In this document: positions 4,963 through 42,508 of the stretch, piece by piece
How positions within the stretch are numbered: position 1 is the stretch's first letter
Layout of the letters: the number at the start of each line of letters is the position of its first letter
Assembly: GCA_964016885.1 (NCBI GenBank)
Contig: CAXHJY010001434.1
Location: 1-42,508, forward strand
Source of the DNA: Eledone cirrhosa
Lineage: Eukaryota
Direction: 5' to 3'
DNA length: 42,508 bases
Position numbers and translations under genes: made by a program
Notes under the pieces: generated by a model
Told to the model about the DNA's origin: nothing
Database searches by the model: none
The model's input: only the letters and a program-made list of their open reading frames with translations

Positions 4963-6369
4963 CATCATCATCATCATCATCAGGTTTAGCGTCCGTGTTC
5001 CACGCTTGCATGGGTTTGGACGGGGGTTTTCCCACTTGAGGCAAGAGTGGTTGTCTTGCTCGCATAGGACTGTCTGGCGGGTTTTCTACAGTTGGATGCC
5101 CTTCCTAACACCAACCACATTTACAGTGTGGGGCTGGGAGGTTTTTACCGTGTTGCCTACACGGCCACATTACAGCGTGGACTGTCTGGCGGGTTTTCTA
5201 CAGCTGGATGCCCTTCCTAACACCAACCACATTTACAGTGTGGGACTGGGAGGTTTTTACCGTGTTGCCTACACGGCCACATTTACAGCGTGGACTGTGT
5301 GTTTTTTTTGTCGTGACACCTACACGATCTCATTTGTTTCGGCCTGGATGTTGTGGGACCAACATAACTTTACATTGACAGGGGCGGTGTGGGTGGGGTG
5401 GAGGTGGTGGGACGGGGGTGTGTTTTGATAGAGATGCCTACTGACTGTAGTAGGTTTTTACTTTGTATTTAGGTAAGGCGGGTCTTCTCTATTACTGAGT
5501 ACCGCCAAAGGTCTCGGTCCAGTGACATTGTCTTGGAGAGGTGTAAGCGTGTGAGGTCGGAATTTATCAGCTCGTCCCATGTTTTTCTGGGTCTGCCTAC
5601 TCCGTGGCTACCGTCTATCTTTATTGCCCTGCACTTTGTTATACAGCTGTCGTCTTTCAGGCGCATCACGTGACCGTACCAACGTAGCCTTCTCTCGAGT
5701 AAACAACATCTGATCCCTCTTATTTCTAATTTTTTCCTTAGTTCGTTTATGCTTTGCCGTTCACGTATATTACTGTTACACATCCAGCGGAGCATGCAAG
5801 CTTCGTTCCTCTCTAGTCTGCGTATATCCTCTGCACACAATGCCCAGGTCTCACTGCCATGCAACATAGCTGTTCGTATGCAGGCATCGTATAACCTGCC
5901 TTTCATTTTTAGGGAGAACCCTCTAGCGGCTAATAGTGGTATAAGCTCTCTGAACTTTTTCCATCCAGTTCTGACTCTAGCTACTGTACTTTCAGAGCAC
6001 CCTCCCCCACTGTTGATTTTGTCACCCAGATAACGGAAGCTGTCCACTATTTCTATAGAACCCTCTGCGCAGTTGAAGGAGCTAGTATTTTGTGGGCACT
6101 TGCTGCTACTTATTGCACCAGAGCACCGGCCACATGTAAAATCTATGTTCTTAGTTAGCTTACCTGTGATCCCACTACATCTTTTATGCACCCATACTTT
6201 GCATTTGGGACATAAAATGGAGTTTCTACCTACGCCTTTCCTACACACTGAGCATGGTCATTTCCCGGATGGGACCGCCGCCTTATTTTCTTTCCTACAA
6301 ACTAGAACTTTAGTCTTAGCCAGGTTAATTTTAAGGCCTTTTGATTCTAGGCCGTGCTTCCATGTTTGG

Positions 6370-8919: not shown

Positions 8920-9040
8920 TAGGAGGTGAGTTTTATTGTAGTACAATAAAGCAATGCAGATATCGGATAATAAGCACTCTACAGTTTGTAGGACTGGAGT
9001 ATACATAATATATAAGAACAAAAGATGGTTAAAAGAGTTC

Positions 9041-9117
9041 CATGTATTTTATTATGCGCATTTCAAAAACAAATATCATCATGCAATAATATTTGTGTTT
9101 TCATCAGATAAAACATG
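9041..9117 (-). ncRNA. Type I hammerhead ribozyme
   Basis: Stem I CATGTTTTAT/ATAAAATACATG, core CTGATGA, long stem II (AAAC..AAATAT/ATATTTGTTTT), GAAA, palindromic stem III ATGCGCAT, AUA cleavage triplet. Confidence 0.85.
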
Positions 9118-9909
9118 AAGACATGATATGAAGGTTAAAAAACACTTGTGGATAGTTCAGTTTTAAATCAACATATGAGAAGTAGTTTTAGATTGATGTG
9201 TGATATTAGAAAAAATATTTTATTTAGGGGGGGGGGGGTGAAAAAGAGGAGGAGATGAGAGTAAAAAGTGGAGAGGGAGGAGTATAATGAGGAAGGATGA
9301 GATAGGTGGAGAGATGGGTGATAGATAGAGAGAGATAGCTTTTATAACTGAGAAAGATATATTGTTTTACATAGAGAGGTTGAAAACCGTTGGAAGATAA
9401 TGAATAAATTAAAAGAATTTGAAAATTAACGAAGAGAAAAATAATGTAAAGTTAAGGTTTGTATATTGAGGGGTTGATAATATGTGCGATGAAAAAAGAA
9501 AATGTTAATATGTATTGAGAATAATGTTTAAGGGTTTAATAATATGTGCGAGTTAAGTAAGGAAATATTGTGAGATGAATGAGTTAGATGAAAGGGAGAA
9601 AAGAATAATGAATTGAGGATGAATAATCTAACGTCAAAAAATGTATATATTTACGAAGGATTTTTACAAGGTGATATAGAGTAAGAATGTATTGTATTAT
9701 GTAATAATTGATTCTATGTTAGGCAAGAGTGAGAAAAGGTACAGATTAGGGGTTAGACATTAAAAGAAGAAGAGAAGAATGATTAACAAGTATTATAGAA
9801 TGTATAATAACCTTTGAAATAAGGTAGAAAGATGGGTATATTTTTAAAAGAAGTGTATATATATATGTGCCTTTGAGAAAAAGATTCTAAATTGATAAAG
9901 AATTGAATA

Positions 9910-10398
9910 TTAGCTGTATACTTTGTGAAATGTTTTATGGAATTTATGCAGGCAGATAGAAAACAAGTCAGTGCGTCTATTTATTATAGAATCTAAATTA
10001 GAAATAATGGTAAATTTTTCATTTAGGCAGAGATTGCAAATTTTGGATAGAGAACTGTTCAAGTATGGAGACGCAGAAGAAACCTTCTTCCAAAAGATGC
10101 TATATTTAATATTTTTGTCTTTCAAGGACCATATGAGTTCTGAGAGAGCCGTGTTGGTTCTTTTAAGTTTGTATTTAAAAGACGAATGATGGTTATAAAG
10201 ATGAGCTTTAAAAGAGGTGGAAGTGGAGCCAAAATAGGTGAAGGAATTGGTGTCAGTTATAACTTTACATTCGTAAATTAAGTTTTTATCAAGACAATGG
10301 TTGTTGAGAGGACATTTATTTTTAATAGGGCAATTGCAATTGCGATTAGAGAGATTATTAATGAGTGACCTAGTGTTATCTATAGAAGGAATTGGTGA
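9910..10398 (-). pseudogene. GIY-YIG endonuclease domain (Penelope-like)
   Basis: Manual translation upstream of the listed 71-aa ORF: RNCNCPIKNKCPLNNHCLDKNLIYECKVITDTNSFTYFGSTSTSFKAHLYNHHSSF..TALSELIWSLKDK..CNLCLNEK..INRRTD..CLH. Confidence 0.87.
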
Positions 10399-10415
10399 CA
10401 GTCAAAATTGCAAAC

Positions 10416-25700: not shown

Positions 25701-25911
25701 CTCTAGCAGACCCTCCTCTCCATCTAGTCTCTTGCACACAGCATACATCAACTTCCTTTCGCTCTAGCATTTCTACGATTTCTCCTGCTCTTCCTTTCAT
25801 CGAGCCTACATTGATGGTACCAACTCGGAGTTTTGGGCATTTGTCGACACTCGTAGGGGAGGGTCTCTGGGTTGGCGCTTCACGTGGGTGCTTGGTAGCT
25901 CGCAGATTCAT
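22792..25911 (-). CDS. RTE ORF (1039 aa): APE endonuclease, reverse transcriptase and inserted PHD-type finger
   Basis: EN motifs GTINVGS, VQETRW, SAYAP, GDFN, LDFIL, SQH; RT motifs [36 protein letters not shown]; C-terminal GRPKMTW. Confidence 0.96.
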   Translation of the reverse strand: MNLRATKHPREAPTQRPSPTSVDKCPKLRVGTINVGSMKGRAGEIVEMLERKEVDVCCVQETRWRGGSARVLVGKSQCYKFFWVGNDDGMGGVGILLADKWVDKVISVYRVNARIIKLRLVLNKTITTIISAYAPQSGLPDELKDRFYESLIHTTALTDDKDFLIIAGDFNGHVGKHCDGFNRVYGGHGVGTRNEEGFRLLEFCDANDMSICNTNFKKPDNHLITYRSGEHSSQLDFILIRGRDRWTVVNTKAFPSEECTSQHSLVVSDLTVRARRTRKQRPTWRRKIWKLKVPSTSNRFKDILLNAYDSKEEQIETFNVEENWEFLKNNLLEATDEVCGWSKTSSRRRVTWWWNNKVDEAVKAKRQAWKEWKNGGSRVHYIETKREARRQVYLARREAEDRKFKHVLQREDQKQEVFKIARQCVRDSCDVIGEKCIRNDKGEIALTSAEKKDAWKSHYDRLLNEENAWEEETLPQVDPIEGPAVQVSGSVVSKAIRDMKMGKATGPSGIAAEMLKASGSVGHTITTRIVNQVILEGAIPKDWCSSIIVNCYKGKGDALDRGNYRGIKLMDQVMKVTERVIAQLIKDRVNIDEMQFGFVPGRGTTDALFLVRQLQEKYLAKSKPLYLAFVDLEKAFDRVPRAVIWWALRKLGVDEWLVKAVQAMYRGAVSKVRISNEYSEEFSVQVGVHQGSVLSPLLFIIVLQAITEEFKTGCPWELLYADDLALIAESMVELENKFQTWKQGLERKGLKVNMTKTKVLVSRRENRTQIPSGKWPCSVCRKGVGRNSILCPKCKQWVHKRCSGISGSLIKNVGFTCSSCAETASKQPQETSTTNLWEGPVETVDSFCYLGDRISNGGGCSESTITRVRTGWKKFRELLPLLAAKGFSLRMKGRLYDACIRTAMLHGSETWALKVEDLRRLERNEACMLRWMCNSNIRERQSIKELRERLSIRGIKCCVQQRRLRWYGHVMRMKDDSCIKRCRALEVDGNRGVGRPKMTWDEVIKADLTQLHLSKTMTHDRDFWRHAVIQGTRPPMGTC

Positions 25912-26159
25912 ATTTCATCTATTGATTCAGAGTTGCTCAAATGTATTCTCAGCTCATCCATCCATAACGGTGGGAAAATTGAGGGCTAGAAGAACAGTGG
26001 TGGTGGGGTAATGGCAGGGTGTGTTGGGATGCGCCAGAGGAGGAGAGAGTTAGTTAGGCAGGTAGTAGCAGCAGCAGTGGAAATGGCATGCGAGGTTTGA
26101 TTGGTCGAATAGACTATGGTGGTGTGTGGGGGTGGGGGGGAGGGAGTTTGTGAGGTCGG

Positions 26160-26808
26160 AACTGAGGATCGCATGGTAAATAACAGAGAGATACAATAGA
26201 ATTAGAATACCGCATGGTAAATATACAAGTTAATACTACATCAGTAAAATTAACAATAATAACGTCATGAAAACTACCAAGAGAAACCCTCGAAAATTTA
26301 TCGCTAATACAGCAGGGAACATCATAATATTAACAACAATATGTAGGCTAAAATACCTTCGGAGATTAGTGAGAATGGATGGATGGCTGGACAATTGGAA
26401 TCAACTCTAGTGATACATTTTAGCAGAGAAGAATGGGAAAGTGTCTTATCTCTTCAATATTTCAAATTGAATGAATTAGGTTGAATAGGTTAAAGACAGG
26501 GTAGTAAACCTTAAAGAGATGCATAGAGAGGAGGGGGGAGGGGTAGGAACTGAGAGTCGCATGGTAAATAACTGAGAGAGATATAATAGAATTAGAATAC
26601 CGCATGGTAAATATACAAGTTAATACTACATCAGTAAAATTAACAATAATAACGTCATGAAAACTACTAAGAGAAACCCTCGAAAATTTATCGCTAATAC
26701 AGCAGGGAACATCATAATATTAACAACAATATGTAGGCTAAAATACCTTCGGAGATTAGTGAGAATGGATGGATGGCTGGACAATTGGAATCAACTCTAG
26801 TGATACAT
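26160..26808 (-). repeat. Direct repeat with 390-nt period at the 5' end of RTE family B (26160-26418 ~ 26548-26808)
   Basis: A near-identical ~260-nt block ending TCAACTCTAGTGATACAT occurs twice. Confidence 0.92.
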
Positions 26809-28133: not shown

Positions 28134-28320
28134 CTGATGAAAACAAATATTATTGCATGATGATATTTGTTTTTGAAATGTGCATAATAAAATACATGGA
28201 ACTCCTTTAACCATCTTTTGTTCTTATATATTATGTATACTCCAGTCCTACAAACTGTAGAGTGCTTTTTATCCGATATCTGCATTGCTTTATTGTACTA
28301 CAATAAAACTCGCCTCCTAC
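28134..28320 (+). mobile_element. Solo ~190-bp 3'-end fragment of the Penelope-like element at 8920-10405, starting at the hammerhead core
   Basis: Reverse complement of 8920-9107 with a few substitutions; CTGATGA..GAAATGTGCATA; flanked by (TA)n. Confidence 0.88.
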
Positions 28321-28417: not shown

Positions 28418-29248
28418 TTTATTCAGGTTTGTGGTTCACCACTGTATAGAGCTGGTCTATTCCGTATGGTCAATCGTAATGTAATAATATAGAGAGTACT
28501 CAACATAAAGCAGTTCAACCGTCTTTGTTTTTGTAGTTGGTGGTGCTATTACGGAGTTAAATATTATAATGAAATGATAGGAGCCTGGATTTGTGTAAAT
28601 CCTTGAAAGGTTTATTATACTATGATCATTTCAATGACCGGCTTCCATATGAATCCGGTGATATCATCAGGTATTCGAAATATAATACGTGAATGTAACA
28701 GATAAAATCCATGGGGCTGAAAATCGAGGACCTGAGGGCGACCGCTATCTTGCACCCTCTATCTTAGCCGGTCGCCCTCGAGTGACGTGGCTAAGGCTCA
28801 CAGTGTGCTACTACCGGTCAGATAAAGGAAAACAGAAAGGGATGGGAACATAAGTTACAAGACAAAAGAAAGAAAGAAAGGAAGGAGAGAGAAGAAGGGG
28901 GAAGGAAGAAGAGGAGAAGCCTTATTTATATATTAATATATTTATATATTTATACCTTTGCTTTATCAATGTGCTTTTCCACGTATTCCACTTCTATGTA
29001 TCCATGTATTTCTACTCCTCCTATTGGGACTTTTGCTCACTTGTCCCCATTAGCACACGACACTAGAATGTCTCCCCCTGAGAACAAAAATAAATATTAC
29101 CCGACTATATCCCGTACTCTACATGCGACTAGGATAAATTATAGATCTACATAATACAACACTGTACGGCGTAAATCAGGCTGTCCGTTTGTTTACAAAC
29201 GAACAAAGCGAGCATTATAATAAATGTTCGGTAAACTGATACGTGCAT
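28418..29248 (-). mobile_element. Non-coding hammerhead-bearing island (probable Penelope-like 3' UTR/pseudo-LTR or non-autonomous element)
   Basis: Hammerhead at 28617-28674 followed by AATAAA, GC-rich hairpin, purine tract; TA on both sides. Confidence 0.6.
28617..28674 (-). ncRNA. Type I hammerhead ribozyme
   Basis: ATAC-CTGATGA-tatcACCGGattcatatggaagCCGGTcatt-GAA-ATGATCAT-A-GTAT; palindromic stem III; AUA triplet. Confidence 0.83.
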
Positions 29249-29312: not shown

Positions 29313-29484
29313 GCTACTGTACGTCTGTATACATATATGTATGTACGTATACATACATACTTGCATTTAAGTAAGTGCCGTACTAAGAGTGAGAAATGAA
29401 ATTTCGTTTCATTCTATTCCATTTATACATATATATATATACATATATATATATACATATACATATACATATATATACATATAC

Positions 29485-31644: not shown

Positions 31645-34194
31645 GAGGAGTCAATTAAGGCCAAAAAGCAGGCTTGGAAAGTATGGCGGGATGGGGGAAG
31701 TAGAGAAGACTATCAAGTGGCCAGGAGGGAAGCTAGGAGACAAGTGTACTTCGCAAGAAGGGAAGCAGAGGAAAGAAAGTTCAAGCATGTTCTACAACGT
31801 GAGGACCAAAAACGTGAGGTGTTCAGGATTGCCAGGCAATGTGTCAAGGAAAACCGTGATATTGTCGGGGAGAAGTGTGTACTTAACGATGATGGCATAC
31901 TTGCCATCACCGACGCTGATAAGAAGGTAGCTTGGAAGTGTCACTACGAAAGGCTTCTAAATGAGGAGAACAAATGGGAGAAAGACAGTCTCCCCCAGAT
32001 CGATCCAATAGAGGGACCAGCAGTGTTAGTTGAAGGTAGTATAATAAGTAAGGCAATCAAAGATATGAAGACGGGTAAGGCGGCTGGGCCTTCGGAAATA
32101 GTTGCTGAGATGCTGAAGGCATCTGGTTCGGTGGGACACACCATGGTCACCCGGATAGTTAACCAAGTCGTACAGAATGGGGTTGTTCCGAAGGAATGGC
32201 GTAGCAGCATCATCGTTAACTGCTATAAGGGAAAAGGAGATGCCCTAGATAGGAGTAACTATAGAGGCATTAAATTAATCGACCAGGTCATGAAGGTCAC
32301 GGAAAAAGTAATAGCGCAACTAATCAGAGAGAGAATTGATCTAGATGAAATGCAGTTCGGGTTTGTGTCAGGCAAAAGTACCACAGACGCTCTTTTCATT
32401 GTACGACAACTACAGGAGAAGTACCTAGCTAAAAGTAAACCCCTATACTTAGCTTTCGTCGACTTGGAGAAAGCCTTCGACAGAGTCCCCCGTTCCATTA
32501 TCTGGTGGTCTCTTAGAAAACTAGGTGTTGACGAATGGCTTGTGAGAGCTATACAAGCCATGTATAAAGAAACAGTCAGTAAGGTTAGAATTAACAACGA
32601 ATATAGTGAAGAGTTTAGCGTAAAAGTTGGTGTCCATCAGGGCTCTGTTCTTAGCCCCCTACTATTTATTATTGCCCTTCAGGCTATAACAGAGGAGTTC
32701 AAGACCGGCTGCCCATGGGAACTCCTATACGCAGATGATCTAACGCTCATAGCTGAATCAATGACCGAACTAGAGAAGAAATTCCAAACGTGGAAGCACG
32801 GCCTAGAATCAAAAGGCCTTAAAATTAACCTGGCTAAGACTAAAGTTCTAGTTTGTAGGAAAGAAAATAAGGCGGCGGTCCCATCGGGGAAATGCCCATG
32901 CTCAGTGTGTAGGAAAGGCGTAGGTAGAAACTCCATTTTATGTCCCAAATGCAAAGTATGGGTGCATAAAAGATGTAGTGGGATCACAGGTAAGCTAACT
33001 AAGAACATAGATTTTACATGTGGCCGGTGCTCTGGTGCAATAAGTAGCAGCAAGTGCCCACAAAATACTAGCTCCTTCAACTGCGCAGAGGGTTCTATAG
33101 AAATAGTGGACAGCTTCCGTTATCTGGGTGACAAAATCAGCAGTGGGGGAGGGTGCTCTGAAAGTACAGTAGCTAGAGTCAGAACTGGATGGAAAAAGTT
33201 CAGAGAGCTTATACCACTATTAGCCGCTAGAGGGTTCTCCCTAAAAATGAAAGGCAGGTCATACGATGCCTGCATACGAACAGCAATGCTGCATGGCAGT
33301 GAGACCTGGGCATTGTGTGCAGAGGATATACGCAGACTAGAGAGGAACGAAGCTTGCATGCTCCGCTGGATGTGCAATAGTAATATACGTGAACGGCAAA
33401 GCATAAACGAACTAAGGAAAAAATTAGAAATAAGAGGGATCAGATGTTGTTTACTCGAGAGAAGGCTACGTTGGTACGGTCACGTGATGCGCATGAAAGA
33501 CGACAGCTGTATAACAAAGTGCAGGGCAATAAAGATAAGACGGTAGCCACGGAGTAGGCAGACCCAGAAAAACATGGGACGAGCTGATAAATTCCGACCT
33601 CACACGCTTACACCTCTCCAAGACAATGTCACTGGACCGAGACCTTTGGCGGTACTCAGTAATAGAGAAGACCCGCCTTACCTAAATACAAAGTAAAAAC
33701 CTACTACAGTCAGTAGGCATCTCTATCAAAACACACCCCCGTCCCACCACCCTCCACCCCACCCACACCGCCCCTTTCAATGTAAAGTTATGTTGGTCCC
33801 ACAACATCCAGGCCGAAACAAATGAGATCGTGTAGGTGTCACGACAAAAAACACACAGTCCACGCTGTAAATGTGGCCGTGTAGGCAACACGGTAAAAAC
33901 CTCCCAGCCCCACACTGTAAATGTGGTTGGTGTTAGGAAGGGCATCCAGCTGTAGAAAACCCGCCAGACAGTCCACGCTGTAATGTGGCCGTGTAGGCAA
34001 CACGGTAAAAACCTCCCAGCCCCACACTGTAAATGTGGTTGGTGTTAGGAAGGGCATCCAACTGTAGAAAACCCGCCAGACAGTCCTATGCGAGCAAGAC
34101 AACCACTCTTGCCTCAAGTGGGAAAACCCCCGTCCAAACCCATGCAAGCGTGGAACACGGACGCTAAACCTGATGATGATGATGATGATGATGA
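31645..34194 (+). mobile_element. RTE family A copy 4. 5'-truncated; RT intact; +1 frameshift near 33538; duplicated 3' UTR unit; (GAT)n tail
   Basis: ORF 31591-33546 (real from SIKAKKQAW), YADD, tail at 34172-34194. Confidence 0.96.
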
Positions 34195-34478: not shown

Positions 34479-36419
34479 CATCATCATCATCATCAACGTT
34501 TAACATCTGTGTTCCACGCTTGCATGGGTTTGGACGGGGGTTTTCCCACTTGAGGCAAGAATGATTGTCTTGCTCGCATAGGACTGTCTGGCGGGTTTTC
34601 TACAGCTGGATGCTCTTCCTAACACCAACCACATTTACAGTGTGGGGCTGGGAGGTTTTTACCGTGTTGCCTACACGGCCACATTACAGCGTGGACTGTC
34701 TGGCGGGTTTTCTACAGCTGGATGCCCTTCCTAACACCAACCACATTTACAGTGTGGGGCTGGGAGGTTTTTACCGTGTTGCCTACACGGCCACATTACA
34801 GCGTGGACTGTGTGTTTTTTTGTCGTGACACCTACACGATCTCATTTGTTTCGGCCTGGATGTTCCAACATAACTTTACATTGAAGGGGCGGTGTGGATG
34901 GGGTGGGGGTGGTTGGACGGGGGTGTATTTTGTTAGAGATGCCTACTGGCTGTAGTAGGTTTTACTATGTATTTAGGTAAGGCGGGTCTTCTCTGTTACT
35001 GAGTACCGCCAAAGGTCTCGGTCCAGTGACATTGTCTTGGAGAGGTGTAAGTGTGTGAGGTCGGAATTTATCAGCTCGTCCCAGGTTTTTCTGGCTCTGC
35101 CTACTCCGTGGCTACCATCTATCTTTATTGCCCTGCACTTTGTTATACAGCTGTCGTCTTTCATGCGCATCACGTGACCATACCAACGTAGCCTTCTCTC
35201 GAGTAAACAACATCTGATCCCTCTTATTTCTAATTTTTTCCTTAGTTCGTTTATGCTTTGCCGTTCACGTATATTACTATTGCACATCCAGCGGAGCATG
35301 CAAGCTTCGTTCCTCTCTAGTCTGCGTATATCCTCTGCACACAATGCCCAGGTCTCACTGCCATGCAACATTGGTGTTCGTATGCAGGCATCATACAACC
35401 TGCCTTTCATTTTTAGGGAGAACACTTTAGCGGCTAATAGTGGTATAAGCTCTCTGAACTTTTTCCATCCAGTTCTGACTCTAGCTACTGTACTTTCAGA
35501 GCACCCTCCCCCACTGCTGATTTTGTCACCCAGGTAATGGAAGCTGTCCACTATTTCTATAGAACCCTCTGCGAAATTGAAAGAGCTAGTATTTTGTGGG
35601 CACTTGCTGCTACTTATTGCACCAGAGCACCAGCCACATGTAAAATCTGTGTTCTTAGTTAGCTTACCTGTGATCCCACTACATCTTTTATGCACCCATA
35701 CTTTGCCTTTGGGACATAAAATGGAGTTTCTACCTACGCCTTTCCTAGACACTGAGCATGGCCATTTCCCGGAAGGGACCGGCGCCTTATTTTCTCTCCT
35801 ACAAACTAGAACTTTAGTCTTAGCCAGGTTAATTTTAAGGCCTTTTGATTCTAGGCCGTAGTTCCATGTTTGGAATTTCTTCTCTAGCTCGGCCATTGAT
35901 TCAGCTATGAGCGTTAGATCATCTGCTTATAGGAGTTCCCATGGGCAGCCGGTCTTGAACTCCTCTGTTATAGCCTGAAGGGCAATAATAAATAGTAGGG
36001 GGCTAAGAACAGAGCCCTGATGGACACCAACTTTTACACTAAACTCTTCACTATATTCGTTGTTAATTCTAACCTTGCTGACTGTTTCTTTATACATGGC
36101 TTGTATAGCTCTCACAAGCCATTCGACAACACCTAGTTTTCTAAGAGCCCACCAGATAATGGAACGGGGGACTCTGTCGAATGCTTTCTCCAAGTCGACA
36201 AAAGCTAAGTATAGGGGTTTACTTTTAGCTAGGTACTTCTCCTGTAGTTGTCGTACAATGAAAAGAGCGTCTGTGGTACTTTTGCCTGACACAAACCCGA
36301 ACTGCATTTCATCTAGATCAATTCTCTCTCTGATTAGTTGCGCTATTACTTTTTCCGTGACCTTCATGACCTGGTCGATTAATTTAATGCCTCTATAGTT
36401 ACTCCTATCTTGGGCATCT
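34479..36419 (-). mobile_element. RTE family A copy 5. 5'-truncated; nonsense mutation at the Y of YADD; PHD cysteines mutated
   Basis: ORFs 35927-36601 (real from DRSNYRG) and 34973-35896 are separated by TAA at 35927-35929; (ATC)n tail at 34479-34494. Confidence 0.95.
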
Positions 36420-36488
36420 ACATATGCATACTGAAATACTAGTGTGTATATGAATACACACACGTATACATATGTATACATATGTATA

Positions 36489-37242
36489 TGGCTTTCTGGA
36501 GAATAGAGGGAAGGTGTTTCCTCGAAAACCAGTATGACTCTAAAAACCGGTTTGTCTGTGTGTTTACATACAGAATAGCTGGGTTGCTCACAGTAAAGCA
36601 ACCAGTGAAAGACTTGTTACATCTACATATGTATACGTGTGTGTATTCATATACACACTAGTATTTCAGTATGCATATGTAGATGTACATTTTTAACTTA
36701 ATTGTTTAAGCGTCAGTCATACAAAAGTGAGTTACAAACGAAACGAAATTTAATTTCGTTTCGTTATTTGTTTTTATCGTCTCCGCTGAACCGGTGCGTA
36801 CTCACACTCTATGCAAATTAGTCTGCCCACTACTAATTTTCATAGAAAAAGCATATAACGATATGTACTTTTACAATTCTCCAGAAAGGCCGGTAGATAG
36901 GTAAATATTGCTGATGAGTTGTAACAACAACGAAACTAGTTCAATATTCCTTGTCTGGCTTTCTGTAGAATAGAGGGAAGGTGTTTCCTCGAAAACCAGT
37001 ATGACTCTAAAAACCGGTTTGTCTGTGTGTTTACATACAGAATAGCTGGGTTGCTCACAGTAAAGCAACCAGTGAAAGACTTGTTACATCTACATATGTA
37101 TACGTGTGTGTATTCATATACACACTAGTATTTCAGTATGCATATGTAGAGGTACATTTTTAACTTAATTGTTTAAGCGTCAGTCATACAAAAGTGAGTT
37201 ACAAACGAAACGAAATTTAATTTTGTTTCGTTATTTGTTTTT
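36489..37242 (+). mobile_element. Partial-tandem hammerhead element with 467-bp period (Penelope pseudo-LTR or retrozyme-like)
   Basis: 36489-36776 ~ 36956-37242; hammerhead at 36904-36948; 3' end joined to (TA)n; inverted fragment at 36415-36476. Confidence 0.78.
36904..36948 (+). ncRNA. Minimal type I hammerhead ribozyme
   Basis: AATATTG-CTGATGA-GTTGTaacaACAAC-GAA-ACTAGT-T-CAATATT: 7-bp stem I, 5-bp stem II, palindromic stem III, GUU triplet. Confidence 0.88.
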
Positions 37243-39394
<2,152 letters not shown>

Positions 39395-40045: not shown

Positions 40046-42508
40046 TAGCGACCTCATAGTCAGGACGAGACGTACTCGACAACAGAAGAGGACTATCCTC
40101 AGGAGGAAAATATGGAAGCTAAAGGACCCCACAGCCAGGAATAAATTTCAAAGCATATTACTTGATGCTTTCGACAGTAAGGAAGAACATTTAGAGTCGG
40201 ACAATATAGAGGGAGAGTGGGAATTTCTGAAAGCAAACCTGCTGTTGGCGACAGACGAGGTCTGTGGCTGGAGCAGGCCTGTAGGCAGGAGGAGAGTAAC
40301 ATGGTGGTGGAACAGTAAGGTGGAGGGGTCAATTAAGGCCAAAAAGCAGGCTTGGAAAGTATGGCGGGATGGGGGAAGTAGAGAGGACTATCAAGTGGCC
40401 AGGAGGGAAGCTAGGAGACAAGTGTACTTAGCAAGAAGGGAAGCTGAGGAAAGAAAGTTCAAGTATGTTCTACAACGCGATGACCAAAAACGTGAGGTGT
40501 TCAGGATTGCTAGGCAATGCGTCAAGGAAAACCGTGATATTGTCGGGGAGAAGTGTGTACTAAACGACGATGGCACACTTGCCATCACCGACGCTGATAA
40601 GAAGGTAGCTTGGAAGTGTCACTATGAAAGGCTTCTAAATGAGGAGAATAATTGGGAGAAAGGCAGTCTCTCCCATATCGACCCAATAGAGGGACCAGCA
40701 GTGTTAGTCGAGGGGAGTATAATAAGTAAGGCAATCAAGGATATGAAGACTGGTAAGGCGGCTGGGCCTTCGGAAATAGTTGCTGAGATGCTGAAGGCAT
40801 CTGGCACGGTGGGACACACCATGGTCACCCGCATAGTTAACCAAGTCGTACAGAACGGGGTTGTTCCGAAGGACTGGCATAGCAGCATCATCGTTAACTG
40901 TTATAAGGGTAAAGGAGACGCCCTAGATAGGAGTAACTATAGAGGCATTAAATTAATCGACCAGGTCATGAAGGTCACGGAAAGAGTAATAGCGCAACTA
41001 ATCAGAGAGAGAATTGACCTAGATGAAATGCAGTTCGGGTTTGTGTCAGGCAAAAGTACCACAGACGCTCTTTTCATAGTACGACAACTACAGGAGAAGT
41101 ACCTAGCTAAAGGTAAACCCCTCTACTTAGCTTTTGTCGACTTGGAGAAAGCCTTCGACAGAGTCCCCCGCTCCATTATCTGGTGGGCTCTTAGAAAACT
41201 AGGCGTTGACGAATGGCTTGTGAGGGCTATACAAGCCATGTATAAAGAAACAGTCAGCAAGGTTAGAATTAACAACGAATATAGTGAAGAGTTTAGCGTA
41301 AAAGTCGGCGTCCATCAGGGCTCTGTTCTCAGTCCACTACTATTTATTATTGCCCTTCAGGCTATAACAGAGGAGTTCAAGACAGGCTGCCCATGGGAAC
41401 TCCTATACGCAGACGACCTGACACTCATAGCGGAATCAATGGCCGAGCTAGAGAAGAAATTCCAAACATGGAAGCACGGCCTAGAGTCAAAAGGACTTAA
41501 AATTAACCTGGCTAAGACCAAAGTACTAGTTTGTAGGAAAGAAAACAAGGCGGCGGTCCCTTCTGGGAAATGGTCGTGCTCGGTGTGTAGGAAAGGCGTA
41601 GGTAGAAACTCCATTTTATGTCCTAAATGCAAAGTATGGGTGCATAAAAGATGTAGTGGGATCACAGGTAAGCTAACTAAGAACATAGATTTTACATGTG
41701 GCCGGTGCTCTGGTGCAATAAGTAGCAGCAAGTGCCCACAAACTACTAGCTCTTTCGATTGCGCAGAGGGTTCTATAGAAATAGTGGACAGCTTCCGTTA
41801 CCTGGGCGATAAAATCAGCAGTGGGGGAGGGTGCTCTGAAAGTACTGTAGCTAGAGTCAGAACTGGTTGGAAAAAGTTCAGAGAGCTTATACCACTATTA
41901 GCTGCTAAAGGGTTCTCACTAAAAATGAAAGGCAGGTTGTACGATGCCTGCATACGAACAGCAATGCTGCATGGCAGTGAGACCTGGGCATTGTGTGCAG
42001 AGGATATACGCAGACTAGAGAGGAACGAAGCTTGCATGCTCCGCTGGATGTGTAACAGTAATATACGTGAACGGCAAAGCATAAACGAACTAAGGAATAA
42101 ATTAGAGATAAGAGGGATCAGATGTTGTTTACTCGAGAGAAGGCTACGTTGGTATGGACACGTGATGCGCATGAAAGTCGATAGCTGTATAACAAAGTGC
42201 AGGGCAATAAAGATAGACGGTAGTCACGGAATAGGCAGACCTAGAAAAACCTGGGACGAGCTGATAAACTCCGACATCACACACTTACACCTCTCCAAGA
42301 CAATGTCACTGGACCGAGACCTTTGGCGGTACTCAGTAACAGAGAAGACCCGCCTTACCTAAATATATAGTAAAACCTACTCCAGCCAGTAGGCATCTCT
42401 AACAAAATACACCCCGTCCCACCACCCCCACCCCCACCCGATCCACACCACCCCGTTCTATGTAAAGTTATGTTGGTGCCGCGCCATCGAGGCCGAAACA
42501 AATGAGAT
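40044..42508 (+). mobile_element. RTE family A copy 6. 5'-truncated at the end of the endonuclease; frame open to the stop at 42362; the 3' UTR runs off the window
   Basis: Real part of ORF 39879-42362 starts at [10 protein letters not shown]; all RT motifs and the PHD-type finger are intact. Confidence 0.96.

Follow-up and report, generated by a model that had tools for sequence, protein, structure and literature searches.

A hammerhead-bearing, non-coding 467-bp repeat with Penelope-type insertion features: a probable retrozyme-like element next to a TA microsatellite

Animal non-LTR retrozymes have been described as short, low-GC, non-coding and self-paired units with one type I hammerhead each, present in many copies and co-occurring with a Penelope-like element (PMC7229834; 10.64898/2026.07.22.740005). 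Unit lengths are given as 150–450 bp by Cervera & de la Pena (2020, PMC7229834) and as 51–972 bp by Li, Clavereau & Pollet (2026, 10.64898/2026.07.22.740005). In the sections of these two papers cited here, the mechanism of retrozyme mobilisation is called unresolved, and the link to Penelope is one of co-occurrence, shared hammerheads and relatedness. The 2026 preprint makes the case for animal retrozymes as non-autonomous derivatives of Penelope, reserves the word “active” for copies in which two or more units with complete hammerheads follow one another, and reports that 8 of 9 Xenopus retrozyme dimers failed to cleave in vitro (10.64898/2026.07.22.740005).

Penelope insertions, for their part, show a characteristic pattern of a partial tandem, an adjacent inverted, 5′-truncated copy and a bias towards (TA)n (PMC8557442). 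A purified Penelope-like protein was reported to cut AT-rich DNA and extend both strands, to begin copying the RNA internally, at a stem-loop lying downstream of the hammerhead, and to need no hammerhead cleavage in vitro (PMC11167929). The minimal Penelope hammerhead has a helix II of 7–8 bp and a helix I of 4–5 bp, and is distinguished from a canonical metazoan form (Cervera & De la Pena 2014, PMC4209133). Non-autonomous relatives are also described: non-autonomous Chlamys elements such as MRC1 are algal, non-coding and of Penelope type, have pseudo-LTRs and head-to-tail copies, and generally share 3′-end sequence with an autonomous partner (PMC8557442). The axolotl hammerhead HHR_Amex1, like the newt satellite-type hammerhead, has a very weak helix III with a palindromic tetraloop and normal stems I and II, and cuts poorly as a monomer, but efficiently as a dimer (PMC7229834).

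Here, we analyzed a 467-bp repeat unit within a window of 42,508 nucleotides, the whole stretch of DNA under study (Table 1). The initial annotation had described about 1.6 tandem copies of a unit devoid of coding potential, and both descriptions were borne out. The repeat extends over 754/467 = 1.61 units, arranged head to tail, and 284 of the 287 bases are identical between 36489–36775 and 36956–37242, with mismatches at 36499/36966, 36684/37151 and 36757/37224; 467 was the sole fitting period of 15 tried (460–474). No ATG ORF longer than 20 aa exists on either strand of the cyclic unit (the longest being 19–20 aa), and its longest stop-to-stop frame is 62–70 aa. Both repeat copies finish at one and the same unit position, 300 nt from the predicted ribozyme cut. 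By arithmetic on the 467 period, the upstream copy starts 14 nt 3′ of the cut-equivalent position 36475. This proximity gives a hint only, from a single copy, and a reverse transcriptase could also stall there, since the start falls within the stem I rod.

Table 1. Features of the 467-bp repeat locus and of a Penelope-like element in the same window.
Feature	Coordinates	Strand	Evidence
Truncated Penelope-like element, candidate helper kind	8922..10401	-	GIY-YIG-like ORF 9913-10401, hammerhead 9107, like 3′-end layout
5′-truncated APE-type LINE fragment, outside the element	34482..36419	-	RVT_1 match
5′ inverted truncated unit piece, reverse complement of 36624-36685	36415..36476	-	62/62 identical
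Junction filler of 12 nt, a local 10-bp duplication belonging to 24-nt palindrome 36465-36488	36477..36488	.	Self-comparison
Upstream copy, 5′-truncated, pseudo-LTR equivalent, 287 bp, without hammerhead	36489..36775	+	Self-comparison
7-bp hairpin, two of its pairs compensated elsewhere in the family; second copy 37049-37070	36582..36603	+	Folding, variants
70-nt interrupted hairpin; second copy 37085-37154	36618..36687	+	Folding
Terminal hairpin, 13 bp, 3-nt loop; second copy 37204-37232, one G-U	36737..36765	+	Folding
Complete 467-bp unit, 35.8% GC, non-coding, strongly self-paired	36776..37242	+	Self-comparison, folding
Predicted long rod extending hammerhead stem I; most pairs p>0.9	36876..36972	+	MFE
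Type I hammerhead, predicted cut 36941/36942 after GUU	36895..36956	+	Descriptor, Rfam HH9, folding, covariation
(TA)n microsatellite, 2.1 kb, likely insertion target	37244..39394	.	Adjoins unit 3′ end; (TA)n behind 36777 in other copies

The flanks of the repeat resemble those of EN+ Penelope-like elements (Craig et al. 2021, PMC8557442; PAc, Frangieh et al. 2024, PMC11167929), with the same partial tandem and inverted copy, the same (TA)n or AT-rich target, and an insertion end located 3′ of, and not at, the hammerhead cut. As for the inverted piece, its final 90 nt were presumably lost through insertion of the neighboring LINE or a later deletion. In contrast to the EN+ elements described in these papers, the unit carries no RT or GIY-YIG ORF, and its hammerhead is of the canonical form and present in one of the two repeats instead of both. 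The EN+ elements have a 30–40-bp tail at one end; both copies here end alike, and the other (TA)n junctions listed lie about 70 nt upstream. An insertion end 300 nt from the cut, together with an inverted piece, is accounted for by the mechanism described for the purified protein (PMC11167929), and the unit was likely pasted into the TA microsatellite by a Penelope-type element. Retrozyme and Penelope pseudo-LTR had been offered as alternatives in the initial annotation; the layout does favor a Penelope-type insertion, and the two are not exclusive.

The hammerhead was found with the same predicted cut site as originally annotated. It has the core boxes CUGAUGA (36911–36917) and GAAA (36932–36935), a stem I of 7 bp (36904–36910/36942–36948) plus a UA bulge, a stem II of 4–5 bp with a UAACAA loop (36918–36931), and a 2-bp helix III enclosing the palindrome CUAG, within the longer palindrome AACUAGUU. 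Two window sites, 36911+ and 9107−, matched the full type I descriptor, as against no match in any of 200 local shuffles; the scan found the minus strand of the unit free of hammerheads. Rfam HH9 aligned end to end at the 36911+ site with 38.6 bits (E 4.3e-8), against a gathering score of 52, and at gathering level there were no Rfam matches anywhere in the window. The alignment of the UA bulge and the UAACAA loop to HH9 suggests a loop 1–loop 2 contact. (Matches to miRNA families in Rfam, far under the respective gathering scores, were attributed to noise from TA-rich hairpins, and an apparent decayed hammerhead at about 28475–28536 was rejected, with a score of 32 against a shuffle mean of 41.)

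The geometry is thus that of the canonical metazoan hammerhead rather than the minimal Penelope form (PMC4209133), and the very weak, palindromic helix III between normal stems I and II is shared with HHR_Amex1 (PMC7229834). The predicted minimum free energy structure of the monomer mispairs the core, while two hammerheads cofold into an open-core dimer at −30.2 kcal/mol, compared to 2 × −13.4 kcal/mol, in line with the reported weakness of HHR_Amex1 alone and its efficiency as a dimer (PMC7229834). The 467-bp unit differs from HHR_Amex1 in its invertebrate-like host context and, in this copy, its GUU triplet, and its activity is putative. GUU ranks among the poorer NUH triplets (PMC8879150). 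The hammerhead sits in the 180 bp outside the duplication, so that the locus has a single ribozyme and could not release a unit-length RNA alone; with a lone hammerhead, and one of the GUU type, such a copy is a predicted dead end. It is a monomer-type copy, not an “active” one in the sense of the preprint (10.64898/2026.07.22.740005). The lone ribozyme, its GUU triplet, the inverted 5′ piece and the adjoining (TA)n array are additions to the initial annotation.

We consider it probable that the 1.6 units at the locus derive from a non-autonomous element of the non-LTR retrozyme kind, which would have been mobilised by a Penelope-like RT/GIY-YIG protein starting inside the RNA. Short size, low GC content, absence of coding sequence, self-pairing, one type I hammerhead per unit, presence in multiple copies and co-occurrence with a Penelope-like element are all shared with the animal non-LTR retrozymes of the cited papers, and 467 bp lies just above the range of the 2020 paper and inside that of the preprint.

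To place the locus within a family, one unit (36560–37026) was compared with four of 23 listed sequencing runs, three of them as Logan contigs (X1, X5 and X6) and one as raw reads (X21). X1 and X21 are from organism A, but from different studies, X5 is from organism B and X6 from organism C. The stretch or part of it occurred in 20 runs from 16 studies, with at least half of its words in 4, and parts of the unit under 17 organism labels, three of which were compared here; the runs richest in the stretch may be the window's own source, and none was recorded as RNA. Matching pieces numbered 946 contigs in X1, 3445 reads in X21, 11 contigs in X5 and 32 contigs in X6, and covered 30, 30, 30 and 29 of 30 unit bins, respectively. 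The locus is one dispersed copy of a multi-copy, non-coding 467-bp family, which is common to at least three organism labels, mostly at 90–100% identity. Retrozymes are described as species-specific in the cited papers, whereas this family, known here from DNA alone, is shared. Scans with unit patterns gave no matches in metagenome contigs and none in viral contigs.

The 3′ end seen at the locus recurs in other copies, with (TA)n directly behind 36777 in 12 contigs of X1 and 1 contig of X6. Secondary (TA)n junctions were present in X1 about 70 nt before the main 3′ end, behind 36703 (3 contigs) and 36708 (5 contigs), and are possible alternative start sites of reverse transcription. Past the 3′ end (36776–36900), the summed depth, which is not a copy number, fell from about 690,000 to 250,000–270,000 in X1 and stayed level in X21 and X6. 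With coverage persisting beyond this end, the head-to-tail junction is likely to be frequent. Among the records listed, none bridged 36775/36776 with 31 letters on each side, and none spanned the whole unit, the contigs being short. The X1 depth also dips at 36560–36607 and 36864–36895, plausibly due to variants and an indel. Deep loose ends and start/stop piles in X21 were discarded as library artefacts (6 of 6 listed piles fall on AATT sites); two opposite-strand joints in this run (5 reads each) may likewise be artefacts and were not counted as evidence, and a joint that “goes back 467” merely reflects the cut point of the query unit.

The same data bear on the possibility that the repeat represents the truncated end of an ordinary autonomous Penelope-like element, i.e. 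a pseudo-LTR tandem with ORF-bearing copies elsewhere. Both the layout and the presence of a hammerhead are shared with Penelope-like elements, and X5 has long unlike flanks, with a share of 0.7 running on into unlike sequence. In X1, however, this share was 0, which weighs against a dominant ORF-bearing partner, an argument weakened by the short contigs. No ORF branch was found among the loose ends listed, a minority of the total. Furthermore, the unit passes in 166 nt from its 3′ end to the hammerhead and back into the repeat without an ORF, and in X1, X21 and X6 the depth over these 166 nt is comparable in magnitude to that of the remaining unit. The hammerhead, with a stem I of canonical length and a short stem II, also departs from the minimal form expected of such an element. 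We therefore regard a terminal fragment of an autonomous element as improbable. The retrozyme part of the initial annotation has gained from this comparison, which yielded a hammerhead-bearing, non-coding unit of canonical geometry, nearly fully covered in three organisms and with no listed ORF branch.

The unit is predicted to be strongly self-paired. Compared with 60 dinucleotide shuffles, it folds at −148.4 kcal/mol as a linear molecule (z −8.9) and at −141.8 kcal/mol as a circle (z −8.3), with 66% of the bases paired in the circle. The circular fold is stronger for the plus strand than for the minus strand (−141.8 vs. −116.6 kcal/mol). An annotated hairpin of about 70 nt (~36618–36688) was recovered with pairing at 36618–36687, and includes an inner hairpin and a 10-nt bulge. 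The 14-bp palindrome noted at 36737–36765, before the unit end, was equally recovered; arranged as 14-T-14, it folds into 13 bp closed by a 3-nt loop, stops 10 nt short of the unit end and has one C>T change in the second copy.

Variants among copies were set against the predicted fold. Of 67 variant places in one run, 40 were listed; the variants are unphased, and related copies are not independent. None of these 40 fell in the catalytic core, 14 were unpaired, 15 singly kept a pair, 4 were compensated (3 pairs) and 7 broke a pair. With the same substitutions placed at random, 12.7 ± 2.2 broken pairs (P 0.010) and 0.72 compensated changes (P 0.006) would be expected. It should be noted that 11 of the 15 singly kept pairs were A>G or C>U changes, which are unable to break pairs; the other paired changes comprised 7 that keep and 7 that break. 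The compensated changes include 36919 T>A (413/588 reads) with 36930 A>T (405/561), which together retain a stem II pair, and two pairs in the hairpin 36582–36603 also swap in other copies. At the cleavage site, 36941 T>C yields GUC in 187/533 reads, and the loop 3 palindrome is broken in 185/537 reads. Overall, the variation tends to preserve the predicted fold of the unit.

The compensatory changes, the core that is intact among the listed variants and the strand asymmetry in folding together point to constraint on an RNA, and so argue against a hammerhead-containing satellite that spread by DNA-level duplication or unequal crossover, its ribozyme no longer relevant. The GUU triplet and the lone hammerhead at the locus would fit such a satellite, and Li et al. 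(2026, 10.64898/2026.07.22.740005) allow for local tandem amplification from a terminal repeat. However, the partial tandem, the inverted 5′ piece and the common 3′ end at (TA)n are signatures of insertion, and this explanation appears very improbable.

The adjoining LINE offers another source of mobility, of which the unit might be a SINE-like passenger. This LINE lies next to the element, is the most repeated element of the window and also ends at TA tracts. However, it is on the opposite strand and meets the 62-bp inverted piece head to head with an overlap of 5 nt, and by self-comparison the unit has neither a (GAT)n tail nor similarity to the LINE 3′ end. A tRNA scan found no tRNA gene, and a pattern scan found no Pol III box and no TATA match within the unit, leaving a passenger origin with hardly any credibility. 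The adjoining RT was also rejected as helper or as the element's own ORF, as it belongs to an unrelated APE-type LINE (86% identity over 159 aa to the APE-RT-PHD ORF at 22795–25914), whose family has further copies in the window that lack the unit. Descent from a self-replicating, viroid-like circular RNA that became endogenised would explain a hammerhead on a circle predicted to be highly self-paired, and RNA-to-RNA replication has been raised as a possibility for retrozymes (PMC7229834), but this origin is exceedingly unlikely for a unit with many genomic copies common to at least three organisms, a branched, not rod-like, fold and no opposite-strand hammerhead.

We thus return to a non-autonomous, retrozyme-kind element mobilised by a Penelope-like helper, for which we infer transcription, cleavage, circularisation, the identity of the helper and the priming site. 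Copies with at least two units would be transcribed from the plus strand, and adjacent hammerheads may pair through the AACUAGUU palindrome and cut at sites equivalent to 36941/36942, giving monomers, which may be ligated into circles. The helper would nick the (TA)n tract and begin to copy the RNA from an internal site 10 nt beyond the terminal hairpin. The partial tandem would then arise as copying ran on past one unit, and the inverted piece through priming on the opposite strand. The initial annotation had taken the partial tandem to be the result of reverse transcription more than once around a circular RNA. This stands in part: a circle-derived tandem is allowed, but a linear multimer explains it about as well, since internal initiation on such a template also gives a partial tandem (PMC11167929), and the locus has one hammerhead. 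We rate the chances of a circular and a linear template as about even.

Taken as a single locus, the 467-bp copy is ordinary mobile-element debris. As a family, it combines Penelope insertion scars with an ORF-less unit bearing a canonical hammerhead, and offers a candidate start signal for reverse transcription and a genomic test of circle versus linear template. Retrozymes are an established kind, for which descent from Penelope has already been argued in the literature, and the 467-bp family would be a new member. A literature search, with subscription journals, Repbase/Dfam and supplements outside its scope, returned no earlier description of the family among the records listed.

A candidate for the kind of helper is present in the window as a truncated Penelope-like element. 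Its GIY-YIG-like frame (163 aa) is followed by a 3′ region of about 800 nt. Atlas places the frame among GIY-YIG-bearing clusters (0.95–0.96; family on 22% of members), while it had no Pfam match and no longer homologue among 311 candidates, with one relative at 45%. We take the frame to be putatively akin to Penelope endonucleases, partly on the basis of its motifs. The hammerhead of this element, about 130 nt before its end, is of type I with an AUA triplet, a long stem II and a palindromic UGCGCA helix III, and a second terminal piece of the element at 28134–28317 (+) is 97% alike, with stem I lost. Like the Chlamys elements, the 467-bp unit is non-coding and of Penelope type, with pseudo-LTRs and head-to-tail copies; unlike what is generally described for these (PMC8557442), it has no sequence match to the Penelope-like element, the one candidate partner in the window.

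What the two families share is the layout of their ends. Both ends of the Penelope-like element have a perfect 8-bp stem, a 3-nt loop and 10 nt before the TA tract, and the 467-bp unit ends with a 13-bp stem, a 3-nt loop and 10 nt, followed by (TA)n. Such a hairpin at a distance of 8–12 nt precedes 103 of 58,954 unmasked positions (0.17%, these cases included), and the likeness is a post hoc observation on two families. It is conceivable, if rather doubtful, that the unit recruits the Penelope helper by shape rather than sequence, and that hairpin, 3-nt loop and 10 nt mark the internal start of reverse transcription on a hammerhead-made RNA circle. If true, the shape would be the missing cis-signal for retrozyme mobilisation, and circle-templated retrotransposition would become directly testable.

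Several other elements of the window were noted. A partial tandem at 26154–26800 (+) has a period of about 388–390 bp, with 259 bp repeated at 97%, and ends at a TA tract; no hammerhead was found in it, and it is possibly a hammerhead-less Penelope-type element. The element end at 29340–29425 (+), before a TA tract, weakly resembles the 3′ end of the unit (score 42, 0 of 500 shuffles) and is possibly an older relative, this being 1 of 11 ends tested and of low complexity. At 14332–15165 (−), a low-complexity open frame of 277 aa resembles a large host exon; it had no Pfam match, and its Atlas leads were weak and gave no usable lineage. The host is accordingly taken as an animal, with the TA-rich landscape giving a faintly cephalopod-like impression. 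The APE-type LINEs are present in at least seven copies (1–2923, 4968–6365, 18156–21014, 22494–25914, 31646–34187, 34482–36419 and 40050–42508), with a PHD finger after the RT domain and (GAT)n tails at TA tracts. Some of their 3′ regions contain a 112-bp duplication, and the 1040-aa open frame at 22795–25914 represents a second LINE subfamily.
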